Source: Pseudomonadota bacterium (GTDB taxonomy: Bacteria > Pseudomonadota > Gammaproteobacteria > Magnimaribacterales > D2472). Taken from it: DNA of 64,000 nt. The notes beneath the pieces were generated by a model. It had not been told where the DNA came from and made no database searches. It saw nothing but the letters and a program-made list of their open reading frames with translations. Made by a program: the position numbers and the translations under genes. The DNA lies in contig JAOMBK010000006.1 in NCBI GenBank assembly GCA_028344535.1, forward strand, positions 1,211 through 65,210, given 5' to 3'. Shown here piece after piece: positions 7,668 to 64,000 of this stretch (positions within the stretch are counted from its first letter, which is position 1; each line of letters starts with the position of its first letter).

Positions 7668-8344
7668 TACAGTTTTTTAAGTTCAAGCATTGTATCCCCA
7701 TCTTGATCCTCATCCTCAACTTTTATAATTAAGTAATCAAGATCTGGGGCTAGAAAGTAGCGCGTGGTTCTATCATCCTGCAGCCTAATTCTTTCTACAA
7801 TGATGCAAGGATAGATAGTGCCATCCACCTCAAAACTTCCATTGTCGACAACCTTGTAGTTGTTTGCTTCAATTGCTCCTGTTTTCAAATCTGGTAGCAG
7901 CAATGAAAATTCTTGAAGATCTGCAATAACATTTTTTCTAATTTGTATTTGGACATTCAATGGATCAAATACGTTTTCGTTTTCTGGTAATGCTTGGCTC
8001 CAATCAAACTTCCCTTTGGAACTTAAAGTTCCTGAAGCCTGATCAAAATTTAAAGTTCTTTTGTCTGAAATCAGAGTCCACTTAACGTCCACATAATATT
8101 TAGTGGAGGTCATGAGATTATTACTTTCAGTGAAATCTGAAATAATTTTTATCCTGCCAAGTGGAAATTTTGCATTAAATTGAATGGTTCTCTTGCCTGC
8201 TTCTTGATGAGTAATAAGCTCTCTTATTCCCTCCATTGAAACTCGTGAATTAGTGAAAACATATTCTCCTTTATAGTCAGGAATTTCTTGTGCTGTTAGG
8301 TCGGCTGAAATTAAAAAAAATAATATTCCAAAATATTTATACAT
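7664..8344 (-). CDS. DUF3108-like exported protein
   Basis: Signal peptide MYKYFG..LTA; DPL motif and [13 protein letters not shown]-terminus; downstream of purN as in Pseudomonadales; start moved to ATG 8344. Confidence 0.7.
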
Positions 8345-8984
8345 TAAAAAACTCCATATGATTTGGCCCGAAATTACTTTCAGCTGCAAATTTCACTTGA
8401 TCACCTTGCAGAGAGATGTATCCTTTCGCTATATCTGCAATGACCTTTGGGTAGATGGCGTGTTCAATTTTATGAATTCGATTAATTAACTTTGCCACAG
8501 ATTGAGCAGGGTCTATCTTTAAAGCACCTTGCGTAATAATAGGCCCACTGTCAAGCTCGTTGCTAACATAATGCACTGATATGCCGTGCATTAAATCTCC
8601 ATTTTCAATTGCCTGTTGATGAGTATTTAGCCCAGGATAATCAGGCAATAAGGAAGGATGAATGTTGATTAATTTTCCACTCAGAGCCTTGGTAAAATCA
8701 TTTGTTAGAATTCTCATAAACCCAGCCAGCACAACCAAATCAGGTTCAATGGGAAGAATCTGCTCTAATAAAGCTAGATCAAATTCTTCTCTCGAGTTGA
8801 AATCTTGATGTTCAATCACTTTACTCATCAAATGAAATTTTTGAGCTCGCTCTAATCCTTTCACGTTAGGCTGATTAGAAATGACCAACTCTATCGAAGC
8901 AGGTATATTTCCAATTTGACAGGCTTTGGCGATGGCTTCTAAATTTGAGCCACCTCCTGAAATCAGAACAACTATTTTTTTCAT
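8337..8984 (-). CDS. purN: Phosphoribosylglycinamide formyltransferase
   Basis: LISGGGSNL, LAGFMRIL, INIHPSLLP, LDSGPII. Confidence 0.97.
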   Translation of the reverse strand: MKKIVVLISGGGSNLEAIAKACQIGNIPASIELVISNQPNVKGLERAQKFHLMSKVIEHQDFNSREEFDLALLEQILPIEPDLVVLAGFMRILTNDFTKALSGKLINIHPSLLPDYPGLNTHQQAIENGDLMHGISVHYVSNELDSGPIITQGALKIDPAQSVAKLINRIHKIEHAIYPKVIADIAKGYISLQGDQVKFAAESNFGPNHMEFFNV

Positions 8985-8986
8985 GA

Positions 8987-10006
8987 TTAATAGTATTGAA
9001 TTTGCTCTTTAAGATCACCTTTGATTATGGAACCAATTTCAAAGGTGCGTAGTTTATGGCTCGACAAGATTTTTTTTGCTTTGGATATTTCTGCTTTGTC
9101 TAAAATACAAACCATCCCAATTCCGCAATTAAATATTCTAAGCATATCTGCTTCTGATATTTTTCCTTTTTCCTGGAGCCACTGAAAAGCTTTAGGAAAT
9201 TTCCACGAAGATAAATTTACATTTGCAATTAATCCGCTTTTAAGAATTCGAGGAATATTTTCTGTCAAACCGCCTCCAGTTATATGTGCCATACCTTTGA
9301 CATGAGTTTTTTTAATTAGTTCTAAGACCGGAGCAGGATACAAATGTGTTGGTTTGAGCAAGGTTTGCATGATTGAATTTGGAGCTTTATTTTTTTTTAG
9401 AATAGAGCGTATTAAAGAGTAACCATTGGAGTGAGGACCGCTTGACTCCACTCCCAACAATATGTGCCCAGGTCTTATCCCTTTACCATCAATCAGATCA
9501 GCTTTTTCCACGACGCCAACAGAAAATCCAGCTAAATCAAAATTATTTTTTGCATAATGGCCAGGCATTTCAGCTGTTTCGCCACCAAGCAGAGCACAGT
9601 TACTTTTCTTACATGCATTCGCTATGCCTTTAACAATTTTTGCGGTGGATTTTGGTTCAAGTGTTGAGGCAGCAAAGTAATCTAGAAAAAACAATGGCTC
9701 AGCGCCGCACGTAACCATATCATTTACACACATAGCAACTAAGTCCTGTCCAGTTAGATGGGTTTTATTGTGAGCCTGGCTAAGTGCAACTTTCGTTCCA
9801 ACTCCATCGGTGCAGCCAACCAACACAGGATTTTTGTATTTAGACCCAAGCTGAAAAAGACCAGCAAAACCTCCAATCCCACCTAAAACTCTTCGATCAT
9901 GAGTTGCATTGACACTTGCTTTAATTGAGTCAACCAGCTCATTACCTTTTTCAATATTTACTCCCGCCTTGGCATAAGGATCTGTAGGTTTTGTTTTACT
10001 AGTCAT
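8987..10006 (-). CDS. purM: AIR synthetase
   Basis: YAKAGV, TDGVGTK, GGETAEMPG, HSNGYSL, AHITGGG. Confidence 0.97.
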   Translation of the reverse strand: MTSKTKPTDPYAKAGVNIEKGNELVDSIKASVNATHDRRVLGGIGGFAGLFQLGSKYKNPVLVGCTDGVGTKVALSQAHNKTHLTGQDLVAMCVNDMVTCGAEPLFFLDYFAASTLEPKSTAKIVKGIANACKKSNCALLGGETAEMPGHYAKNNFDLAGFSVGVVEKADLIDGKGIRPGHILLGVESSGPHSNGYSLIRSILKKNKAPNSIMQTLLKPTHLYPAPVLELIKKTHVKGMAHITGGGLTENIPRILKSGLIANVNLSSWKFPKAFQWLQEKGKISEADMLRIFNCGIGMVCILDKAEISKAKKILSSHKLRTFEIGSIIKGDLKEQIQYY

Positions 10007-55767: not shown

Positions 55768-57161
55768 CCAAAGTTACCAGATTTGCACCCAGTCCAACGG
55801 GAGCCTTGCACATAGGTGGAGTACGAACTGCATTATTTAACTATGTGTATGCCAAGCAAAATAAAGGTAAGTTCTTAATCAGAGTTGAGGACACAGATGC
55901 TGAAAGATCAACAAAGGAGTATGAAGACAATATTCTCAAAGGATTATCTGATATTGGCATTGATCCAGATGAGCCTCCTGTCAGGCAATCTGAAAGATCT
56001 GAGCTGTATAGGTTGGCTGCAGAAAAAATAATAGAATCCGGCAATGCCTATTGGTGTGATTGTTCAAAAGAAGCTCTAGAAGAAATGCGCAAAGAGCAGG
56101 AGTCAGCTGGTAAAAAACCTATGTATGATGGAAGAAGTAGAAATCTTGGACTGAAGCGTTCTGAAAATACAGTCCTAAGATTAAAAACACCAAAAGATGG
56201 CAACTTAGTTTTTCATGATTTGGTAAGAGGTGAAGTAGTTTTCCAGAACTCTGAATTAGATGATTTGATTCTTCTTAGAAGCGATGGCTCTCCAACATAT
56301 CATCTATGTAATGTCGTCGATGATTTTAATCAAGGAATTACAACTGTAGTAAGGGGTGAAGATCATTTAAGTAATACACCTAGACAAATACACATTCAGC
56401 AAGCTTTAGGTTATCCACCTCTTGAGTACGCACACTTACCAATGGTTCTAGGCCAAGATAAAAAAAGATTATCTAAAAGAAATGCTGTAACAAGCTTGCA
56501 AGATTATTTTGATCAAGGATATCTTGAATCATCTATGATCAATATGCTTGCAAGATTGGGTTGGTCTAAAGGTGACAAAGAAATTTTTTATTTAGATGAC
56601 TTAATTGTAGACTTTAGAATTCAGGAAGTTCAGAAAGCTGGCGCTGTCTTTGACCCAGTAAAGCTAGACTGGATTAATAATCATCACTTAGCTGCGCTCT
56701 CTTTTGATGATTTTAAGGAAAGATTGACCCCATTTCTTAACAGCGTTGAAATTGATTTAACTCAAAAGCAAAACAGCAATAAGATTATTGAAGCCATGAG
56801 GAGCTCTAAACCAACACTCCTTGGAGTAGCCAAAGATCTTGTACCCTATTTTTTTCAAATAGATTCATATGATGAAAAAGCAGCAAATAAATTTTTAAGC
56901 GGATCAGAGCCTGTTTTGGAATATGTGCAAAGAAAATTAAATAAATTAGAAGCTTGGAATGAGGAATCTATAGATCATGCATTGCAAGAGGCTCAAACTG
57001 CATTAAGCTTGCCAACTCCAAAGCTTAATCAACCAATAAGAATCGCAATGACGGGATCTACTCAATCTCCTTCTTTGGGCTTAACGCTTTCATTGTTTGA
57101 TTTGGTTGAGGTGAACAACAGAATTGATGCAGCGCTAAAATATTTAGCTCATTCTACCTAG
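55764..57161 (+). CDS. gltX: Glutamate--tRNA ligase
   Basis: RFAPSPTG, HIGG, RGEDH, RLSKR. Confidence 0.97.
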   Translation: MTKVTRFAPSPTGALHIGGVRTALFNYVYAKQNKGKFLIRVEDTDAERSTKEYEDNILKGLSDIGIDPDEPPVRQSERSELYRLAAEKIIESGNAYWCDCSKEALEEMRKEQESAGKKPMYDGRSRNLGLKRSENTVLRLKTPKDGNLVFHDLVRGEVVFQNSELDDLILLRSDGSPTYHLCNVVDDFNQGITTVVRGEDHLSNTPRQIHIQQALGYPPLEYAHLPMVLGQDKKRLSKRNAVTSLQDYFDQGYLESSMINMLARLGWSKGDKEIFYLDDLIVDFRIQEVQKAGAVFDPVKLDWINNHHLAALSFDDFKERLTPFLNSVEIDLTQKQNSNKIIEAMRSSKPTLLGVAKDLVPYFFQIDSYDEKAANKFLSGSEPVLEYVQRKLNKLEAWNEESIDHALQEAQTALSLPTPKLNQPIRIAMTGSTQSPSLGLTLSLFDLVEVNNRIDAALKYLAHST

Positions 57162-57711
57162 AAACACATGAGGCAATTATTGCCTGAGGATGCTCTTGAG
57201 TTAAATGTTCCAAAGTATCTAAAGATGTTTCTTTAGCGATCCCATACTCAGCAATGCCAAAGATTTGATTAGGCTCAATAACTAGATTGTCTGAAATTTT
57301 TTTTATGCCGTCATAACAATCCAATAGATTTAAATTTTCCATATTATTGGCAGAATAAAAAATCTTTTTTTTAAATTCCACTTCAGTTAATTGATCTGAT
57401 TGAGTTAAAACAAAATAGTTTTTTGGAACATTCATAAATTTAATTTCATCTTTTCGCAATATATCGCCAGCATCAGAGGACATTTGTTTTCCAATAACAT
57501 CTAACGATTCCATTGATTGGTATTTGAAAATACTTATTGATCCTAGCGATTTATAAAGTGGATTCAGCCCTGGGTTAACATAATTCCGCTCATAACCCTC
57601 AAAAGACAGAAGTGAGGAGGCAAGTGGGGCATGTTGATTTTCATAGTAATCCCTAAAATCATCATCAGATAACCCTTCCATCTTATGAATAAATGCTAAA
57701 GCTTTAATCAA
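57154..57711 (-). CDS. EthD-domain protein
   Basis: GLSDDDFRDYYENQHAPL...YERNYV, DEIKF. Confidence 0.8.
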   Translation of the reverse strand: MIKALAFIHKMEGLSDDDFRDYYENQHAPLASSLLSFEGYERNYVNPGLNPLYKSLGSISIFKYQSMESLDVIGKQMSSDAGDILRKDEIKFMNVPKNYFVLTQSDQLTEVEFKKKIFYSANNMENLNLLDCYDGIKKISDNLVIEPNQIFGIAEYGIAKETSLDTLEHLTQEHPQAIIASCVSR

Positions 57712-59416
57712 TTTGAATTGCTACCCCTGCATTGGGCCTTCTTAAGTCAGCAAAACCCTCTTTGCCTTTTGAAGAGATTAAAATGCTTTGTGTTGAACCC
57801 ATAGTTTTTGATTCTTCGAGCTCATGACCATATGATTCAAGTATTTGTAACGTATCTCTACTAAACCCTTTTTCTAAACGTAAATTTTTATAAGGCCAAT
57901 CTTTATGAAGTCTTGGGAGCATGGTGGCTTCCCCAAGATTTAAATCAAAGTCTATGACCCCAGTCACAACTCTCAACACAGCAGCTGGTATTAAAGCACC
58001 CCCAGGAGATCCTGTGATGAGCTTTAACTCATTTTTTTCATTGAAGATAATAATTGGAGTCATAGTGCTCATAGGTCTTTTGCCTGGCTCAAATCTATTG
58101 CCTATGCTTGCTGAGCGATCTATTACTTCAGGGTTTCCATACTGATAAGCAAAGTTATTCATTTGATTATTAAGAAGAATTCCAGTACCTGGAATAGTTA
58201 CCCCAGAGCCAAATGAGTAACCTAATGTATATGTGTTAGAAACAACATTGCCATGTTTATCAATGATTGAGTAATGAGTTGTATTTTCACCCTCTTGAAA
58301 TAATGAATCAGGATTCAAGGCTTCCGGTGGGGTGGCTTCTTGAAAATTGATTGACTTGGCTAATGATTTTGCTCTTTCCTTTGAAATTATTTTTTTTATC
58401 GGGACACCATAAAACTGAGGATCTCCCATGTATCTTGATCTATCCATATGTCCACGTTGTAATGCTTCTGCGAATAGATGAAGAAAGCTTGCTGAGTTTG
58501 GTCCGACTTTAGCAGTATCAAAGTTTTCTAGAATATTTAATCCTTCAAGCAACACTGCAGCACCCCCGGCTGGAGGAGGGTGGGCAAGGACTTTGTGATT
58601 CCTGTAAGTTGTTTGAATGGGTTCTGCAAACCTAGGCTTATATTCTTTAAGGTCTTTAGCAGAAATGTACCCACCATTTTGTTTCATAGCTTGAACTATT
58701 TTCTTGGCAATAGATCCAGTATAAAAAGCCTCCTCACCATTTCTAGCTATTTCTCGAAAAGTCCAAGCTAAATCAGGCCGCTTCATTACTAAATGTTCTT
58801 TTACCGGATCACCATTTTGATAATAGATATTTTCAGATTCTGAATCGAGATTTATTTGATCAGCACTACCAATAGCTTTATTGAGATCATAGCTAACTTG
58901 TATTCCTTTTTGCGCTTGTTTTATGACGGGCTGCAATATTTTCTTTAATGGTAATTTCCCATAGCGATCATGTGTCTGTAATAACCCAGCCACAGTTCCA
59001 GGAACCCCAGATGCTTTATAACCATATCTCCTTTGGTCATAATTATTCTTTAAAAATAAAAAGTCATTATTTGAAATATTTTTGGGTGCAGCACTTCTAA
59101 AATCTACTGCTATTGTTTTATTTTCATCCTTTAAATAAACCAACATGAAGCCTCCACCCCCTAAATTACCTGCTCTAGGAAGTGTTGTTGCCAAAGAAAA
59201 CCCAACTGCAACTGCTGCATCAATTGCATTACCACCCATATTTAAAATTTCTATTCCAATATCTGAAGAAGCTTGATTCTGTGAAACGACCATTCCAGAA
59301 GTTCCAATGGTGGGATGAAAGGGAGAGGGATAGTCAATATATCTAACTTGCCCCCAAGCATTAAAGGAAACAACTAGAAGATAAAATAAAATATTTCTAA
59401 GAGTCATGAATTTCAA
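57704..59416 (-). CDS. ggt: GGT-family Ntn hydrolase with altered acyl pocket
   Basis: GGNAIDAAVA, GNLGGGGF, TTHYS nucleophile, PGKRP, GSPGG; signal peptide. Confidence 0.93.
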   Translation of the reverse strand: MKFMTLRNILFYLLVVSFNAWGQVRYIDYPSPFHPTIGTSGMVVSQNQASSDIGIEILNMGGNAIDAAVAVGFSLATTLPRAGNLGGGGFMLVYLKDENKTIAVDFRSAAPKNISNNDFLFLKNNYDQRRYGYKASGVPGTVAGLLQTHDRYGKLPLKKILQPVIKQAQKGIQVSYDLNKAIGSADQINLDSESENIYYQNGDPVKEHLVMKRPDLAWTFREIARNGEEAFYTGSIAKKIVQAMKQNGGYISAKDLKEYKPRFAEPIQTTYRNHKVLAHPPPAGGAAVLLEGLNILENFDTAKVGPNSASFLHLFAEALQRGHMDRSRYMGDPQFYGVPIKKIISKERAKSLAKSINFQEATPPEALNPDSLFQEGENTTHYSIIDKHGNVVSNTYTLGYSFGSGVTIPGTGILLNNQMNNFAYQYGNPEVIDRSASIGNRFEPGKRPMSTMTPIIIFNEKNELKLITGSPGGALIPAAVLRVVTGVIDFDLNLGEATMLPRLHKDWPYKNLRLEKGFSRDTLQILESYGHELEESKTMGSTQSILISSKGKEGFADLRRPNAGVAIQID

Positions 59417-60849
59417 AATATCATTGGAGCTAAATAGAAGGCAAATATGGTGACTAAAAAGACCCCAATAATATTTAATGCAAATCCTGCTCTCATCATA
59501 TCTGGTATGGTTAATTTTCCTGAACCAAAAACAATTGCATTAGGTGGAGTCGCTACAGGTAACATAAATGCACAACTTGCAGCTAATACAACAGGGATTG
59601 TCAGGGCTACTGGAGCTATACCAAGAGCAACTGCAACTGCTCCAACTACTGGTAAAAATGTTGAGGTGGTTGCAACGTTAGATGTGATTTCTGTTAAGAA
59701 TATAATTAAAGTTGCAACTGCTAGTATCAGGACAATGGGTGGGACATTTCCTAAAATGGTTAAGCCTTGGCCAATCCAGCCCCCAAGACCTGATGAACCA
59801 ATAGATGCAGCTAAAGATAATCCACCTCCAAACAAGACAAGTAATCCCCAAGGCAGTTTATTAGCTTGTTCCCAAGTTAGTAAATCTGTTTTTGCATTCT
59901 CAGAGGGAATAAAGAAAAAACTCAATGCTGCAAATATAGCAATTCCTGCATCTGTAAGGCCAGATAAAGGAACAAAGTTATCAAGCAATGTTCTGAACAT
60001 CCAAGCACTCGCTGCCATAGAAAAAATGATTAAAACTTTTTTTTCATCTCTGCCTAGAGGACCTAAATCAGTCAGCATGTTTTGAAGCTGTAATTTTGTT
60101 TCTATACTAGCTATAAAATGAACGGGATACACTATTTTTGTAATTGCATACCAGGATGCGCCTAGCATAAGAATGGCTAAAGGTACCCCTAATTTCATCC
60201 AATCCACAAAAGAAATTTCAATACCATAGGTTTCTTGTATAAAACCTACAAATATTATATTTGGAGCTGTACCTACCAAAGTTGACATTCCTCCAATTGA
60301 AGCAGCATATGCAATGCCAAGCAAAAGCGATGTTTCAAAGTTTTTTCTTTCTTTTGCTGAGAAATTTGGAATAGTTTCAGCAACACTTGAGCATACCGCC
60401 AAACCAATTGGTAAAAGCATTAAAGTCGTTGATGTATTCATCACCCACATGCTTATAGAGGCAGAAACAAGCATAAAGCCACCAACTAATTTTGCTCCAC
60501 TATTTCCAATAGCTATTAACATTTTTAATGCCAATCGTTTATGCAATCCGGATGATTCAATACCTAGAGCTAAAATAAAGCCACCCATGAATAAATAAAT
60601 ATTTGGATTCGCATAGGGTAGAGCAGCTGTCTTAAAATCAGTTACATGAAGTATTGGGAACAAAGCTAACGGCAATAACGCAGTAACGGCCACTGGAACT
60701 GCCTCAGTTGCCCACCAAATCGCCATCAACAGAGTAACAGCAGCCACAGCCCAACCTATTGGCGAGAGAGAATCTGGATTAGGCGTTAGAAGAATAAAAA
60801 AGAAGGCTGCTAAACCTAGCCAAAAACCCCTTTTTTTATAAGCCTGCAT
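59413..60849 (-). CDS. DASS/SLC13 sodium-coupled anion (dicarboxylate) symporter
   Basis: WWATEAVP, SMWVMNTST, GTAPN, TEITSNVAT, AFMLPVATPPNA. Confidence 0.93.
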   Translation of the reverse strand: MQAYKKRGFWLGLAAFFFILLTPNPDSLSPIGWAVAAVTLLMAIWWATEAVPVAVTALLPLALFPILHVTDFKTAALPYANPNIYLFMGGFILALGIESSGLHKRLALKMLIAIGNSGAKLVGGFMLVSASISMWVMNTSTTLMLLPIGLAVCSSVAETIPNFSAKERKNFETSLLLGIAYAASIGGMSTLVGTAPNIIFVGFIQETYGIEISFVDWMKLGVPLAILMLGASWYAITKIVYPVHFIASIETKLQLQNMLTDLGPLGRDEKKVLIIFSMAASAWMFRTLLDNFVPLSGLTDAGIAIFAALSFFFIPSENAKTDLLTWEQANKLPWGLLVLFGGGLSLAASIGSSGLGGWIGQGLTILGNVPPIVLILAVATLIIFLTEITSNVATTSTFLPVVGAVAVALGIAPVALTIPVVLAASCAFMLPVATPPNAIVFGSGKLTIPDMMRAGFALNIIGVFLVTIFAFYLAPMIF

Positions 60850-61712
60850 TATTTCAACCTCGCATAAAACATTTCAGCAGCATAGGGAACCATTTGCTCT
60901 GTATTGCTGTGGCCTTTAGTGGTTGGAACTTCAACCATTCCCCATTTAAAAAATTGATTAACTTCTTTTGATTTAGCTACTGCAGATTTAAAGAAGTTTC
61001 TTCCTCTAGCAAGACGATGCTCTCCCTGCAAGTTAATAATGTCCCAATGATCTGCTACATAAGGTGTATTTGGTTTAGTTGAGGTATCTGCTCTTCCAAG
61101 CATTAGTAGAAAATACTTACTAAAAGCTTGTCTTAGCTTTGCATCATCTATATTTGAATTAGTTAGACCAAAAGGCCACTCTTGATCTGACATTGACAGA
61201 TACCACCCTAAATTCGCTGCAATTGCCAAGGTGAAAGACGCTTGTGGATGATGAAGCACAAACCGATGAACAAAATGTGCTCCAGCACCATGACCATATA
61301 TACCCCAATTCTCTGATTTAATTTTAAATTTCTTCAATGCATTGTTGGCAAGAGGTTCAATAGCCATAAACGCATGCAAATCTTGCTCAATAGGATCTAG
61401 ACTTTTAGTTTTGATATTTCCATAATTAAAACCCCACACTTCTGGAAAACTCTCTTCACTAAATTCAGGAACAATCACCAAAAGATTTAACTCCTGAGAT
61501 GCTTTCACCCATTGATCTCTATACTCTTCAGCGTTTCTTTTCCTTCCATGCATAACAACCACAAGCCTTGTCTCTGCATTTATTTTATTAGGCTTGGCTA
61601 CGAAGGTAGGCAAAGAAGCGCCTGCCCAGTCCTCGAACTCGTAATCGGTCAACTCAGCGTTCGCATTCCATGCAATAGAAGCAAACAAAAAAGTAAAAAT
61701 AAATTTATACAT
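60849..61712 (-). CDS. Exported alpha/beta-hydrolase-fold protein lacking the nucleophile Ser
   Basis: Signal peptide, VMHGRKRNA, YGHGAGAHFVHR, AANLGWY, QGEHRLARG. Confidence 0.75.
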   Translation of the reverse strand: MYKFIFTFLFASIAWNANAELTDYEFEDWAGASLPTFVAKPNKINAETRLVVVMHGRKRNAEEYRDQWVKASQELNLLVIVPEFSEESFPEVWGFNYGNIKTKSLDPIEQDLHAFMAIEPLANNALKKFKIKSENWGIYGHGAGAHFVHRFVLHHPQASFTLAIAANLGWYLSMSDQEWPFGLTNSNIDDAKLRQAFSKYFLLMLGRADTSTKPNTPYVADHWDIINLQGEHRLARGRNFFKSAVAKSKEVNQFFKWGMVEVPTTKGHSNTEQMVPYAAEMFYARLK

Positions 61713-61765: not shown

Positions 61766-64000
61766 TTAGAATGTAACTCTTAAATCTAAGTAATAATTTC
61801 GACCCCAGTCCGAATGAGCATCTGCATAGTATCCATAGTATCTATCAGCAGTTGGAGCTCTTTCATCCTCTAAGTTTTTCACAGCAAATCTAAGTCTTGC
61901 TTTGTGATCACCAAGATCAAAGTTATATGAAACGGTTGCATCCATAGTCGTCATTTCTGGAACTAGATATGGAACTCCATTTTTTAATCCAAGTGAGGTT
62001 TGAACAAAGGAACCTTTTTTTAGTCCAGTTAAACTAGCGCCCCACGGACCTTTATCCCAAGAAACTCTTATAGTGTGCTTGTTATCATAAATTCCATCTT
62101 TTTCTAGCAAGTCACCAAACCCCTTTAAAGGAATTGATTCAGGGATTTCACCACTATCTTTCTTAGCTTGCAATGCAGCAAATTCACCACTTGCTTTTTG
62201 CTCAAATTTATCAAGGAAAGTTCCGATATATCTCAAATCAAAATCACCAAAATCAGTTTGAATATCGTAATAGATGCCTACATCCATTCCCTCAATGGTT
62301 CTAAGAGCCATGTTGGTATAGTTATTTGTTACATACTTAATGTCTCCAAATGGGCAGACACCTGCAGCAGCGAAGCCAGCAGCATCTCCAGCATCAGGAG
62401 CTTCTCTTACTACGAGCGGGTCGCCTGCAAAGGTATCACAATTATTTAAGCCATTCGCAAATCGCAATAACATGTCATTAACAGTTTGATTCTCTCTGCC
62501 AAATAAACCAATAGTTTTATCTTTTTCAATTGTCCAAGCATCGACAGTTACAATCAAACCATTCATTGGAGTTAAAACGACACCAAATGATGTATTGTCT
62601 GACTCTTCAGCTTCAAGCCCCTTAGCACCTGTTGCGACTCTTTGAATTGTGTATCTTGAGTCAGAGTCAATAACATTCTCAACACTTTGAACCTCATTTA
62701 CTCTAAAAGCAGCACGGTCATATCTTGTTCCAGATCTTGCTACAATTTTTTCATTGATTTGAATGATATTTGGTGCTCTGAATGCAGTAGAGAATGATCC
62801 TCTTAATGTCATCCATGGAGCAACTTCCCACCCAACAGCTAGTTTTCCGACAGTGGTATCTCCAAAGTCTGAAAAGTCTTCATTTCTCACAGCTAGCTGA
62901 GCGTTAATAGATTCAGTAACTGGAATTTGAAATTCAGCAAATAATGATGTCACATCTCTTGAGCCAGATACATCTGGAGTAGGGGAGGAATTGACCACAT
63001 CAGAGACTAATGGGTAGGTATCTCCCTCATAATCAGTATAGGTAATTGTTCCATCTAATCTAGGATCTCTATCATCTATAACCTCTTCCTCTCGATACTC
63101 AAAACCAACCAAAAGACCAACATCTCCAGCAGGAAGAGTCATGAATGATGCATTTGACATTTTGAAGTCAAACATATCAAGAGTGCTTTCATTTTTTCTG
63201 TAAACGCTAATTAAAGCTCTCTCAATATTTGAATTAACTCCTGCACTAAAGGGATTGTATGCGGCAGGCGTAGAGTCATATAATGCTGCTTTAAGCAGGT
63301 TATTTGACATTCTATTTCTAGTCACGTCTCTATGTCTTGCAATTGAGCTGACATAAGCTGTTTCCCAGTCCCAATCTCCTGCAGAACCTCTAAAGCCTTG
63401 AAGAAATCTGTATGTTTCTTTTTTAACATTAACGAGTCTTTGTTTTTCTTCGTATCGATAATTATCAATATAAAGATTTTTACCTGCAAAGATTGCGGTT
63501 GGCACCCCATCAACATTAACTTTAAGTTGGTTTAAATAATAGTTATCTGGCCCAACTCTGTGTTTGGAAGAGCTAAAAGCATATGAGGCATGAGCAGTCC
63601 TATCACTGTCTGAGCTATAAGCTCCAATTTCAGTAAAAGATTCCATGCCATTATCCATTTCATGGTTGATAAATATCACAACATTATTTCTAATAAGCTC
63701 AGATCTAACATCTGTCGGTCCCCAAAAATTACTTCTAAGTGCTCCGTTACCGTCTTGTGCGATACAAGTACCAAAACCAGTATCAAAAAGAGGGTGGCCT
63801 CTATTAGTACATTTTGAATCCCCTAAAGGAAATAACTCAAACTCACCATTAGAGTCAGTCCAGACATGGTTATAACTTTCTCCTGCATGTTCACGAGAGC
63901 TAACCATATCAAACTGTCCATAAAGTGAATTCGAGCTTAAATTTCTAAAAGAAGTGCTAGTTTTCCATGGAGAGTCATCTGCAACGAAGGGTCTGTGATC
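61766..64000 (-). CDS. TonB-dependent receptor (5' end beyond window)
   Basis: Frame open to position 64000; FSTAFRAPN, LEAEESD, KNLEDERAP, C-terminal LRVTF. Confidence 0.93.
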   Translation of the reverse strand, partial: DHRPFVADDSPWKTSTSFRNLSSNSLYGQFDMVSSREHAGESYNHVWTDSNGEFELFPLGDSKCTNRGHPLFDTGFGTCIAQDGNGALRSNFWGPTDVRSELIRNNVVIFINHEMDNGMESFTEIGAYSSDSDRTAHASYAFSSSKHRVGPDNYYLNQLKVNVDGVPTAIFAGKNLYIDNYRYEEKQRLVNVKKETYRFLQGFRGSAGDWDWETAYVSSIARHRDVTRNRMSNNLLKAALYDSTPAAYNPFSAGVNSNIERALISVYRKNESTLDMFDFKMSNASFMTLPAGDVGLLVGFEYREEEVIDDRDPRLDGTITYTDYEGDTYPLVSDVVNSSPTPDVSGSRDVTSLFAEFQIPVTESINAQLAVRNEDFSDFGDTTVGKLAVGWEVAPWMTLRGSFSTAFRAPNIIQINEKIVARSGTRYDRAAFRVNEVQSVENVIDSDSRYTIQRVATGAKGLEAEESDNTSFGVVLTPMNGLIVTVDAWTIEKDKTIGLFGRENQTVNDMLLRFANGLNNCDTFAGDPLVVREAPDAGDAAGFAAAGVCPFGDIKYVTNNYTNMALRTIEGMDVGIYYDIQTDFGDFDLRYIGTFLDKFEQKASGEFAALQAKKDSGEIPESIPLKGFGDLLEKDGIYDNKHTIRVSWDKGPWGASLTGLKKGSFVQTSLGLKNGVPYLVPEMTTMDATVSYNFDLGDHKARLRFAVKNLEDERAPTADRYYGYYADAHSDWGRNYYLDLRVTF

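Follow-up and report, generated by a model that had tools for sequence, protein, structure and literature searches.

In surface ocean waters, few bacteria are as abundant as those of the SAR86 group. Their ggt genes are read, in two genome papers, as serving the cleavage of glutathione and the scavenging of sulfur (PMC3358033, PMC11582366). The 64,000-nucleotide stretch of SAR86 DNA analyzed here (hereafter, the window) contains a ggt-family gene whose product carries an altered donor-binding pocket, and the question raised by this locus is which amide bond such an enzyme would cleave. A first-pass annotation of the same DNA had proposed a natural glutaryl/succinyl acylase.

The gene is located at 57704..59407 (-) and encodes the 567-aa precursor of a GGT-family Ntn hydrolase. 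Translation was taken from the ATG at 59405-59407, the likely start, which gives a length matching that of homologs; the enclosing open reading frame (57704..59416 (-)) also contains an in-frame TTG upstream, at 59414-59416, from which the protein would be 570 aa long. The reading frame is intact. Sequence and fold both place the protein in PF01019 (E 3.6e-154) and among the MEROPS T03 Ntn hydrolases, and its score against TIGR00066 was 495.5 bits, compared with a cut-off of 357.85. The E. coli GGT precursor 2e0w_A was retrieved by phmmer against PDB sequences (E 6.7e-130) and was likewise the top fold match (TM 0.82/0.94) of an AF2 model with a pLDDT of 90.8. By eye, the first ~20 residues (59348..59407 (-)) read as a probable Sec signal peptide with a hydrophobic core followed by AWG-Q; in the model, residues 2-17 form a helix and residues 18-26 have a pLDDT below 50. 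The mature enzyme would be secreted to the periplasm, and it is predicted to undergo autoprocessing.

To describe the pocket, we fetched E. coli K-12 ggt (NP_417904.1, from NC_000913.3) as a reference and aligned the two proteins by MAFFT, which gave 232 identities over 562 aligned positions (41%). At positions 114, 391, 411, 430, 432, 433, 444, 462, 463, 483, and 484, the reference was checked to read R, T, N, Q, D, D, Y, S, S, G, and G, and the window protein reads R, T, G, Q, N, N, I, S, T, G, and G. The catalytic and autoprocessing nucleophile T391 (58280..58282 (-)) and the oxyanion hole G483-G484 (57998..58003 (-)) are therefore in place. The ligands of the donor alpha-carboxylate are also kept, with R114 encoded by AGA at 59096-59098 (-) and S462 followed by a conservative S463T change at 58064..58069 (-). 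By comparison, two of the three alpha-amino ligands (N411, Q/E430, and D433) are replaced, leaving G, Q, and N: Asn411 is a Gly (GGT, 58220..58222 (-)), and the E. coli Q-M-D-D stretch has become Q430-M-N432-N433 (58154..58165 (-)), with both aspartates changed to asparagine (D433 to AAC at 58154-58156, D432 at 58157-58159). E115 is a Ser (AGT, 59093-59095 (-)). The lid loop equivalent to E. coli P438-A451 (58100..58141 (-)) has the same length as in E. coli; its aromatic residue Tyr444, which is reported to hydrogen-bond N411 (PMC8062742), is replaced by Ile (58121-58123), and L446 by Arg (58115-58117). Together with L461M, these substitutions separate the variant from E. coli Ggt (2dbu, 2dbx, 2e0w), with which it otherwise shares fold, length, signal peptide, T391, T409, the glycine pair, R114, S462, and Q430. 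The first-pass annotation had reached part of this picture by an alignment made by eye. The peptide on which it relied is the exact translation of 58064-58282 (-), its ungapped T391-S463 alignment was reproduced by phmmer (2dbu_B, the small chain, residues 1-173 paired with query 379-552), and its N411G, D433N, and Y444I changes, as well as the residues it listed as retained, stand in the MAFFT alignment, where positions 411 and 433 hold Gly and Asn rather than Asn and Asp. E115S, D432N, and L446R did not appear in it.

These substitutions extend well beyond the window. Across 81 orthologs (51-99% identity), G411, N432, N433, R446, S449, M461, and T463 were invariant (81/81). Since these residues never vary, the pocket changes are, on the evidence of the alignment, conserved and selected rather than sporadic or due to chance. 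T391, T409, S462, and the Gly-Gly pair were equally invariant, R114 and Q430 were each found in 80 of the 81 sequences, and no ortholog had an aromatic residue at 444 (0/81). The N411/D433 combination was carried by 121 of 150 library representatives. When 17 rows of the N433 clade were set against 120 canonical rows, 12 positions discriminated between them (E115, N411, E/Q430, D432, D433, N442, L446, L461, S463, H516, Q517, and P520), nine of which lie in or beside the donor pocket or the lid. E115, present in 98% of canonical rows, was Ser or Gly in all 17 clade rows; position 430, a Glu in most GGTs, is Gln in the variant, and up to four acidic residues have been lost in the clade. FastTree recovered the 17-row clade with a support of 98 among 153 rows, and a quick IQ-TREE run on 72 hand-picked rows gave a 29-row clade (28 N433 rows and one I433; SH-aLRT 99) nested among the N411/D433, E. 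coli-type GGTs. Elsewhere in the same genome we found a canonical GGT paralog (N411/E430/D432/D433/F444/S462/S463), and in a related branch with Arg at 432, a canonical-type GGT stands in tandem with the variant at 11 of 52 loci; these tandem partners fall beside the N433 clade in the tree. We propose the combination of G/S411, Q430, a non-acidic residue at 432, N433, and T463 as an annotation rule that separates such proteins from true glutathione hydrolases.

The variant gene is part of a conserved cluster that encodes a TonB-dependent receptor, a PahZ1-like protein, a DASS anion symporter, the GGT, and an EthD-like protein, with synteny kept across orders. The DASS-family Na+-coupled symporter (59413..60849 (-); PF00939 E 1.7e-77, TIGR00785 291.7 bits) ends 5 nt ahead of the GGT ATG. 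Its nearest solved relatives are SLC13A2, SLC13A5, SLC13A3, and VcINDY, ahead of a sulfate carrier, and it has a further match to the CitMHS family of citrate transporters (E 1.8e-51); its cargo would be the anionic product of the GGT. Only the C-terminal part of the receptor (61766..64000 (-)) is contained in the window, past which the gene extends; in the 99%-identical locus L004, the receptor is 990 aa long, with plug and beta-barrel Pfam domains at L004:670-3639. On the other side, the EthD-like protein (185 aa, 57154..57711 (-)) matches PF07110 (E 4.9e-07) over its N-terminal 35 residues only and begins at a TTG that overlaps the stop codon of the GGT gene. Among 80 related loci of the SAR86 group, a DASS homolog was present in 74 (on the GGT strand in 61 of these), a TonB-dependent receptor in 69, an EthD-like gene in 29, and a PahZ1-like gene in 26. 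The receptor is the most constant partner of N433-type GGTs: in a sample of 80 loci obtained with generic GGT patterns, 79 of them readable, a receptor homolog lay within 7 kb of 8/11 N433-type GGTs versus 1/68 D433-type GGTs (Fisher p = 5.5e-8). This linkage to a receptor, and that to an anion symporter, further distinguish the variant clade from E. coli Ggt, and a constant receptor partner suggests a larger, N-blocked isopeptide as the substrate. A literature search that covered few subscription journals returned no report linking the clade, or any GGT, with such a receptor cluster.

Between the receptor and the symporter lies a 287-aa protein of the alpha/beta-hydrolase fold (60849..61712 (-)) with a signal-peptide-like N-terminus and no Pfam match. 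Its AF2 model (pLDDT 86.8) and sequence both match poly(aspartic acid) hydrolase-1, PahZ1, of Sphingomonas sp. KT-1 (6ve6; 34% identity, phmmer E 5.2e-44, Foldseek E 1.7e-27, TM 0.82/0.89), which assigns it the PahZ1 scaffold; PahZ1 of Pedobacter sp. KP-2 (9o7u) is 28% identical (E 1e-31). PahZ1 is described as hydrolyzing a polyanion at its beta-aspartyl amide bonds (PMC13017698, PMC4456602), with a Ser-Asp-His catalytic triad and an essential Arg as defined in PMC13017698. The equivalents of Asp, His, and Arg align and are invariant in a 24-row alignment, whereas the catalytic Ser of PahZ1 is replaced by Gly142 (61287-61289) in the SAR86 protein. The surrounding GHGAG motif was present in 26 of 26 orthologs and in 119 of 120 database matches, and the Ser-less SAR86 protein may, judging from these residues, be no hydrolase at all. 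The association with the GGT is seen in another form in an 859-aa protein (P0131) in which an N433-type GGT is fused with a PahZ1-like domain that has kept the Ser; this domain is 32% identical to the window's PahZ1-like protein over 262 aa (E 3e-38). The fusion belongs to a cluster of 24 members, the named ones being Steroidobacteraceae, and the Ser was kept in 14 of 15 members.

A pocket without alpha-ammonium ligands has a known counterpart in Bacillus anthracis CapD (3g9k), a poly-gamma-D-glutamate transpeptidase/depolymerase, which reads S/Q/Q/N at 411/430/432/433, where the window protein reads G/Q/N/N. Both enzymes thus combine a small residue at 411 with Q430, an uncharged residue at 432, and N433, and both keep R114, T391, and the glycine pair. 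The CapD acyl-enzyme is reported to carry a polyglutamyl chain, so that the alpha-amino group of the donor is substituted (PMC3173206). The window GGT shares neither the CapD lineage, a separate one on a long branch of the 72-row IQ-TREE tree, nor the absence of the lid loop, as CapD has a 12-residue gap there and T/F at 462/463, in contrast with the full-length lids of the SAR86 and Woeseia proteins. CapD is, in addition, a Gram-positive surface enzyme outside any receptor/symporter cluster. Going by the tree and the lid, its pocket solution evolved independently of the N433 clade.

The Asn at the D433 position is also the natural feature of class IV cephalosporin acylases, which are described as sharing about 30% homology with GGTs (PMC8062742). 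Because this value is set against the 41% identity of the variant to E. coli GGT, and because the clade is nested among E. coli-type enzymes, the variant probably lies outside the class IV lineage, which was compared by its published description. The loss of Tyr444 recalls the engineered E. coli D433N/Y444A/G484A enzyme, and the Q and N at 430 and 433 recall B. subtilis E423Y/E442Q/D445N; in these descriptions, however, position 411 is Asn or Tyr, not the Gly or Ser of the clade, and the variant keeps G484. The phmmer match to 2nlz, a solved 'cephalosporin acylase', was distant (182.9 bits); its residues 114, 411, and 462 are reported as S, Y, and I (PMC4568574).

Together, these results make it quite probable that the donor specificity of the variant differs from that of canonical, glutathione-type GGTs. 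From its residues, the pocket is probably unable to hold a free amino group and would cleave an amino-blocked or amino-less acidic amide. Our main reading, to which we assign a probability of roughly 0.45, is that of a periplasmic hydrolase of N-blocked gamma-glutamyl-like isopeptides that carry no free alpha-ammonium. With the catalytic residues and those that clamp the alpha-carboxylate intact (T391, G483/G484, R114, S462, T463), the alpha-ammonium-gripping half of the pocket dismantled (N411G, D433N, D432N, E115S, and the loss of Tyr444), and an invariant Arg newly present in the lid, the enzyme would form an acyl-enzyme from a gamma-glutamyl-like acyl group that has an alpha-carboxylate and lacks a charged free alpha-amino group. 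By analogy with CapD, this group would most likely come from an oligo- or polyanionic peptide, as a gamma-glutamyl or beta-aspartyl residue that is N-acylated and held in isopeptide linkage. Candidate substrates include polymers or oligomers of gamma-glutamate, material of the iso-aspartyl or poly-aspartate-like kind, and X-gamma-D-Glu-Y peptides of the peptidoglycan type, which could be imported by the adjacent TonB-dependent receptor; the co-oriented DASS symporter would take up the anionic product.

The reading closest to that of the first-pass annotation is a natural des-amino dicarboxylyl amidase, acting on glutaryl- or succinyl-amides whose acyl part has no alpha-nitrogen and releasing a dicarboxylate for the DASS symporter. 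The rebuilt alpha-amino pocket, the canonical paralog, and the symporter speak for it, and the transporter fits at least as well as under the isopeptide reading, given that its nearest solved relatives carry plain di- and tricarboxylates and that SDF (DctA/GltP-like) symporters stand in for DASS in other lineages. Engineering studies point the same way: the triple E. coli mutant, in which Tyr444 is lost as in the variant, is reported to have 50-fold higher GL-7-ACA acylase activity than D433N, the best B. subtilis glutaryl acylase variant, E423Y/E442Q/D445N, has the clade's Q and N (PMC8062742), and a Pseudomonas GGT variant with the equivalent change is reported to hydrolyze many glutaryl conjugates (PMC11421214). 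The first-pass annotation had taken D433N alone to convert E. coli GGT into a glutaryl-7-ACA acylase; such activity is indeed reported, but it is low, and the mutant loses transpeptidation while retaining ~82% of gamma-glutamyl hydrolysis (PMC8062742). Since gamma-glutamyl hydrolysis is left largely intact, the pairing of N433 with a small 411 residue does not identify a glutaryl/succinyl acylase, and CapD, which is no glutaryl acylase, has the same signature. Moreover, a Tyr fills the 411-equivalent site of the engineered acylase, a site that is emptied to Gly or Ser in the natural clade, and we identified no natural glutaryl- or succinyl-amide of a size to require a TonB-dependent receptor. 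The PahZ1-like neighbor and fusion, the tandem canonical GGTs, and the periplasmic amidohydrolases and D-amino-acid dehydrogenases of other loci point instead to amino-acid-derived isopeptides. We consider the first-pass proposal partly supported and the des-amino amidase a serious rival, though rather unlikely, and N-blocked isopeptides the more likely substrates compared with plain glutaryl amides.

The same 82% residual hydrolysis could also be accommodated by an ordinary hydrolase of glutathione or gamma-glutamyl peptides that has given up transpeptidation and scavenges sulfur or nitrogen. This would agree with the score, which exceeds the cut-off of the NCBIfam gamma-glutamyltransferase equivalog, the glutathione use assigned to all ggt genes in the SAR86 genome papers, the continued presence of Q430, R114, S462, and T463, and the reported preference of class IV acylases, with their natural Asn433, for GGT substrates (PMC8062742). 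It is quite unlikely, however, in view of the replacement of two of three alpha-amino ligands, E115, D432, and the lid Tyr across all 81 orthologs, the canonical paralog in the same genome, the tandem pairs, which argue for different jobs, and the specific tie of the N433 clade to TonB-dependent receptors. This tie, together with the CitMHS match of the symporter and a FecR-type anti-sigma gene ahead of the receptor in one Caulobacter locus, would in turn suit the processing of a metabolite that the receptor imports, whether an iron chelator or something else, in which a succinyl-, citryl-, or 2-oxoglutaryl-type amide yields a di- or tricarboxylate for DASS; siderophore esterases do occur among the distant fold matches of the PahZ1-like protein (ranks 8-41, E about 1e-10). 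Its specific relatives, though, are PahZ1 enzymes, the receptor scored 54-65 bits against siderophore-receptor models with cut-offs of 493-1200, the loci examined showed no genes for siderophore biosynthesis or iron transport, and a Caulobacter GGT, its paralog unspecified in the source, is reported to be down-regulated under iron limitation (PMC3751524), all of which makes iron acquisition very unlikely. That the unusual pocket and the Ser-less hydrolase next to it mark a dead or decaying copy is extremely improbable: the frame is intact, the model is confident, T391, T409, and the oxyanion glycines never vary and R114 stands at 80/81, the altered residues hold down to 51% identity, and synteny is kept across orders.

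Given the separate conserved clade, the rebuilt donor pocket, and a receptor and transporter cluster of its own, the glutathione annotation is probably wrong for this variant SAR86 gene. Under the isopeptide reading, the clade would fill an enzymatic gap in the turnover of peptides, of peptidoglycan type or polyanionic, in dissolved organic nitrogen; were a des-amino dicarboxylyl amide the substrate, it would offer a natural scaffold for glutaryl-acylase biocatalysis, so far reached by engineering only. Either way, the clade represents a natural experiment in GGT donor-specificity switching whose solution CapD reached on its own. A broader and doubtful extension of the isopeptide reading is that N433-type GGTs are the key isopeptidases of a pathway that is widespread and as yet undescribed. 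In it, a TonB-dependent receptor would supply enzymes of the periplasm, and Proteobacteria would thereby harvest isopeptides with a blocked amino group, of the gamma-D/L-glutamyl and perhaps also the beta-aspartyl type, derived from peptidoglycan (X-gamma-D-Glu-Y) or from poly-gamma-glutamate- or poly-aspartate-like polyanions. Carriers of the pathway would include SAR86, Woeseia, Pseudohongiella, Lysobacterales, Halieaceae, Sphingomonadaceae, and Caulobacteraceae, and the Ser-less PahZ1-like protein of SAR86 could act in it as a non-catalytic, polyanion-binding helper. If this were true, part of the 'glutathione use' of SAR86 would be turnover of D-glutamate-containing dissolved organic nitrogen.

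The surroundings of clade GGTs vary among lineages. SDF symporters were found near them in Woeseia, Sphingomonadaceae, and Erythrobacter loci. In the window's own genome, which is 58% complete, matches of the PRK09061 type did not exceed 57.5 bits and those of the D-amino-acid-dehydrogenase type did not exceed 29.5 bits, and amidohydrolase and D-amino-acid neighbors were seen in non-SAR86 lineages only. There, Amidohydro_3 proteins with a signal peptide or lipobox stand beside clade GGTs at 7 of 52 loci (NCBIfam PRK09061, 166-219 bits), and genes of the D-amino-acid-dehydrogenase family (E 1e-90 to 1e-101) are present at Sphingorhabdus, Erythrobacter, and Arenicella loci.

The gamma-glutamyltransferase (GGT) gene lies on the minus strand in an open frame of 570 codons that begins with a TTG (57704..59416). 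Because its close homologs are all 567 amino acids long and an ATG is found at 59405-59407, we took a 567-aa protein as the product. This protein matches Pfam PF01019 as a full-length family precursor (E 3.6e-154) and NCBIfam TIGR00066 (score 495.5 bits, cut-off 357.85), and it aligns with the E. coli GGT precursor 2e0w_A at E 6.7e-130. Its AlphaFold model (mean pLDDT 90.8) has 2e0w as the top solved match (TM 0.82/0.94), and the first ~20 residues, judged by eye, look like a Sec signal peptide. The first-pass annotation had claimed that this enzyme carries N411G and D433N changes in the pocket that binds the alpha-amino group. For residue numbering, we fetched E. coli K-12 ggt (NP_417904.1) and aligned it to the window GGT. 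The peptide quoted in that annotation is the exact translation of 58064-58282, and its gap-free alignment to T391-S463 holds, with HMMER pairing residues 1-173 of the E. coli small subunit with query residues 379-552. At positions 114, 391, 411, 430, 432, 433, 444, 462, 463, 483, and 484, E. coli GGT has R, T, N, Q, D, D, Y, S, S, G, and G, and the window GGT has R, T, G, Q, N, N, I, S, T, G, and G. N411G (codon GGT, 58220-58222) and D433N (codon AAC, 58154-58156) are therefore both confirmed. The other substitutions listed in that annotation are also right, but the list was incomplete, because D432 is replaced by N, E115, beside the carboxylate-binding Arg, by S, and L446 in the lid loop by R.

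These replacements are shared by the orthologs of the window GGT. We scanned species-representative genomes and obtained 80 loci, with identities of 51-99%, in assemblies of SAR86, Woeseia, and further marine Gammaproteobacteria. Across these loci and the window (n=81), G411, N432, N433, T463, S462, T391, and both glycines are invariant, as are R446, S449, and M461; R114 and Q430 are present in 80/81, and no ortholog has an aromatic residue at 444. An exhaustive search made without a profile supplied 150 representatives, in which the 411/433 pair is N/D in 121, E/D (the B. subtilis type) in 10, G/N in 11, and S/N in 3. A FastTree phylogeny of 153 rows, from which 5 representative rows with <480 aligned residues were excluded, recovered a 17-row clade with a support of 98. 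When these 17 rows were set against 120 canonical rows, 12 positions with a conservation of 80% or more among canonical GGTs were found to be replaced in the clade (E115, N411, E/Q430, D432, D433, N442, L446, L461, S463, H516, Q517, and P520). Nine of the 12 belong to the donor pocket and lid or their immediate surroundings, and the clade has given up as many as four acidic side chains.

A second phylogeny was computed with a quick IQ-TREE search, without a mixture model, on 72 hand-picked rows (16 clade rows, 39 representatives, 16 ORFs from the loci, and CapD, the polyglutamate enzyme of the GGT family from B. anthracis). It gave a 29-row clade (SH-aLRT 99) of 28 N433 proteins and one I433 protein, with members from Gamma- and Alphaproteobacteria, nested among E. 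coli-type N411/D433 GGTs. Both trees agree on one single clade, with support that comes from quick methods. As judged from the sequences, the N433 clade is a real, conserved GGT clade that has probably neofunctionalised. G/S411 together with N433 also occurs elsewhere in the tree, in the small group of P0233 and P0241 and in CapD, a long branch whose exact place is unsure. The combination thus arose more than once.

The window GGT sits in a minus-strand gene cluster in the order TonB-dependent receptor (61766 to beyond 64000), 287-aa secreted protein (60849-61712), DASS symporter (59413-60849), GGT, and EthD-like protein (57154-57711). The symporter gene stops 5 nt before the GGT start, and the start of the EthD-like gene overlaps the GGT stop. 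In a locus 99% identical to the window (L004), the receptor is a 990-aa protein with Plug and barrel domains. Among the 80 related loci, a DASS homolog was found in 74 (same strand as GGT in 61, opposite in 13), a TonB-dependent receptor in 69, the EthD-like protein in 29, and the 287-aa protein in 26. Among solved proteins, the DASS protein is closest to Na+/dicarboxylate and Na+/citrate carriers, with E 1e-72 to 1e-76 for SLC13A2, SLC13A5, and SLC13A3 and E 1.6e-60 for VcINDY; SLC13A1, a sulfate carrier, gave E 2.8e-63. A 212-codon open frame on the plus strand, antisense to the DASS gene (59447-60085), is best explained by chance in a gene of low GC content. In the 185-aa EthD-like protein, the EthD match is confined to the first ~35 residues, and the remainder has no family. 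A Woeseia locus (L029) has an extra SDF-family symporter just downstream of GGT; it is split into two overlapping frames of 124 and 312 aa (7716-9019), which may reflect a frameshift, a pseudogene, or an assembly error.

Although no Pfam family was found in the 287-aa neighbour, it matches poly(aspartic acid) hydrolase-1 (PahZ1) by sequence (Sphingomonas sp. KT-1, 6ve6, E 5.2e-44; Pedobacter, 9o7u, E 1e-31) and by fold (6ve6, TM 0.82/0.89; model pLDDT 86.8). PahZ1 is described as a serine hydrolase that cleaves a polyanion at its beta-aspartyl amide bonds (PMC13017698, PMC4456602), with the triad S157/D225/H280 and an essential R246 (PMC13017698). The equivalents of Asp, His, and Arg are kept in the window protein, but the Ser is replaced by Gly142 (codon 61287-61289), giving GHGAG where the nucleophile elbow is GHSAG. 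This Gly is found in 26/26 SAR86 orthologs and 119/120 database hits, and the neighbour could be either a conserved Ser-less "pseudo-hydrolase" or an enzyme with an unusual mechanism. The 859-aa representative P0131 has an N433-type GGT (~34-576) fused to a C-terminal PahZ1-like domain (~597-849) that is 32% identical to the window protein over 262 aa (E 3e-38). Its cluster has 24 members, the named ones from Steroidobacteraceae, and the catalytic Ser of the fused domain is intact in 14 of 15 members. Together, synteny and this fusion support that GGT and the PahZ1-like protein are functionally tied. A complex prediction for the mature GGT and its neighbour, run without controls, scored 0.00 and counts neither way on binding.

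The association with the receptor extends to the wider clade. As a control set we used 80 loci from a scan with generic GGT motifs derived from a broad-clade alignment, mostly canonical GGTs: 11 carried an N433-type and 68 a D433-type enzyme, and one was unreadable. A homolog of the SAR86/Woeseia receptor lay within 7 kb in 8 of the 11 N433-type loci and in 1 of the 68 D433-type loci (Fisher p = 5.5e-8). With a DNA pattern built on the R432 motif we retrieved 52 loci of 8 kb, whose sources include Lysobacterales, Pseudohongiella, Halieaceae, Arenicella, Glaciecola, and Erythrobacter; the G-Q-R-N signature was readable in 49. These loci encode a TonB-dependent receptor in 24 cases, a count to be read with many loci ending at GGT, as well as SDF (2/52) and DASS (1/52) symporters, a PahZ1-like protein (1/52), D-amino-acid-dehydrogenase-family genes (3/52), and Amidohydro_3 proteins (7/52). 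The last match NCBIfam PRK09061 at 166-219 bits, below its cut-off; this model is named "amidohydrolase family protein", and an older label, probably "D-glutamate deacylase", is given no weight here. All four of the N-termini examined in these proteins were signal-peptide-like, three with a lipobox-like Cys. A Sphingorhabdus locus has the order amidohydrolase, receptor, LysR regulator, D-amino-acid dehydrogenase family, GGT, and D-amino-acid-type PLP enzyme, and a Sphingomonadaceae locus the order receptor, SDF, and GGT. In the window's own genome (58% complete), we found no convincing PRK09061-type amidohydrolase or D-amino-acid dehydrogenase, so this D-amino-acid context is not simply transferable to SAR86.

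Canonical and variant enzymes can occur in one genome. The window's own assembly (1.03 Mb) has three GGT-family genes. The paralog on contig 23 is canonical (N411, E430, D432, D433, F444, S462, and S463), and the 1.5 kb on either side of it holds unrelated genes for a prepilin peptidase, a short-chain dehydrogenase, and an AMP-binding enzyme. The third (L003 1306-2490, contig C20) is of a different, more distant type and ends at a contig edge soon after the predicted nucleophile, leaving its pocket residues unreadable. In the R432 branch, a canonical-type GGT is in direct tandem with the variant in 11/52 loci (L180-L182, L190, L192, L197, L204, L210, L211, L217, and L177), and a tandem pair is also seen at L099 (4410-7876). 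The partners have an N411/E430/[A,T,D]432/D433 pocket, and the pair sits behind one TonB-dependent receptor. A second SAR86 lineage has the order beta-lactamase-family protein, canonical GGT, variant GGT, DASS, and receptor. Since the tandem partners also adjoin the N433 clade in the 72-row tree, these pairs fit an origin of the variant by tandem duplication with a subsequent division of labour.

Which donor would such a pocket accept? The retained R114, S462, T463, T391, and GG pair indicate an acyl group whose alpha-carboxylate is still in place, as far from the scissile carbonyl as in a glutamyl group. The loss of N411, D433, D432, E115, and Y444, with the gain of a lid Arg, indicates that it lacks a cationic amine, and it may bring extra negative charge or bulk to the lost-amine site; for the space near 411/444, this is based on residue identity and the published E. 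coli structure as outlined in sections of a review (PMC8062742). Two donor classes fit: des-amino acyl groups of the glutaryl type and isopeptide gamma-glutamyl or beta-aspartyl residues that bear an N-acyl group. CapD offers a parallel for the latter. It is described as cleaving the poly-gamma-D-glutamyl chain and carrying the chain as an acyl-enzyme (PMC3173206), so its acyl residue has a substituted alpha-amino group. Its pocket reads S411, Q430, Q432, and N433, compared with G, Q, N, and N in the window GGT. Because CapD falls in another part of the tree, the shared pocket points to convergence for a donor without a free alpha-ammonium.

We favour, with a probability of about 0.45, an N-acylated gamma-glutamyl or beta-aspartyl isopeptide residue as the donor of the window GGT. 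Five observations speak for this reading: CapD sets a precedent, a PahZ1-like protein is both neighbour and fusion partner, canonical GGTs lie in tandem with the variant, relatives have periplasmic amidohydrolases and D-amino-acid enzymes nearby, and a TonB-dependent receptor, suited to oligomers, is constant. The first-pass annotation had instead proposed a natural glutaryl/succinyl acylase. Such a des-amino donor is kept alive by the engineering literature and by the dicarboxylate-type symporter next door, and we consider it unlikely, if a serious contender. An ordinary glutathione hydrolase, which is how SAR86 genome papers treat ggt genes (PMC3358033, PMC11582366, in the parts consulted), would be more doubtful still; it is live because E. 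coli GGT with D433N alone reportedly keeps 82% of its hydrolytic activity and class IV acylases are reported to prefer GGT substrates (PMC8062742). A siderophore-type substrate for the receptor/GGT cluster has a low probability: against siderophore-receptor models, the receptor scores far under the cut-offs, and what we saw of a Caulobacter iron paper (PMC3751524) has a GGT, paralog unspecified, down-regulated under iron limitation. Our literature search found no report tying an N433-type GGT to a receptor/symporter cluster, and in the portions seen of a 47-sequence GGT subfamily survey (PMC4568574) we found no mention of such a clade.

Other representatives depart from the canonical GGT in different ways. 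The independent P0233/P0241 group combines G411/N433/T463 with the loss of R114 (M or A) and of most of the lid loop, and may bind its acyl group without an alpha-carboxylate. Four further representatives are fusions: a beta-lactamase-family domain with GGT (P0137, 960 aa), a dienelactone-hydrolase/S9-like domain with GGT (P0146, 918 aa), a double GGT (P0123, 1129 aa), and GGT with a DUF7402/F5-8 type C domain (P0172, 1248 aa).
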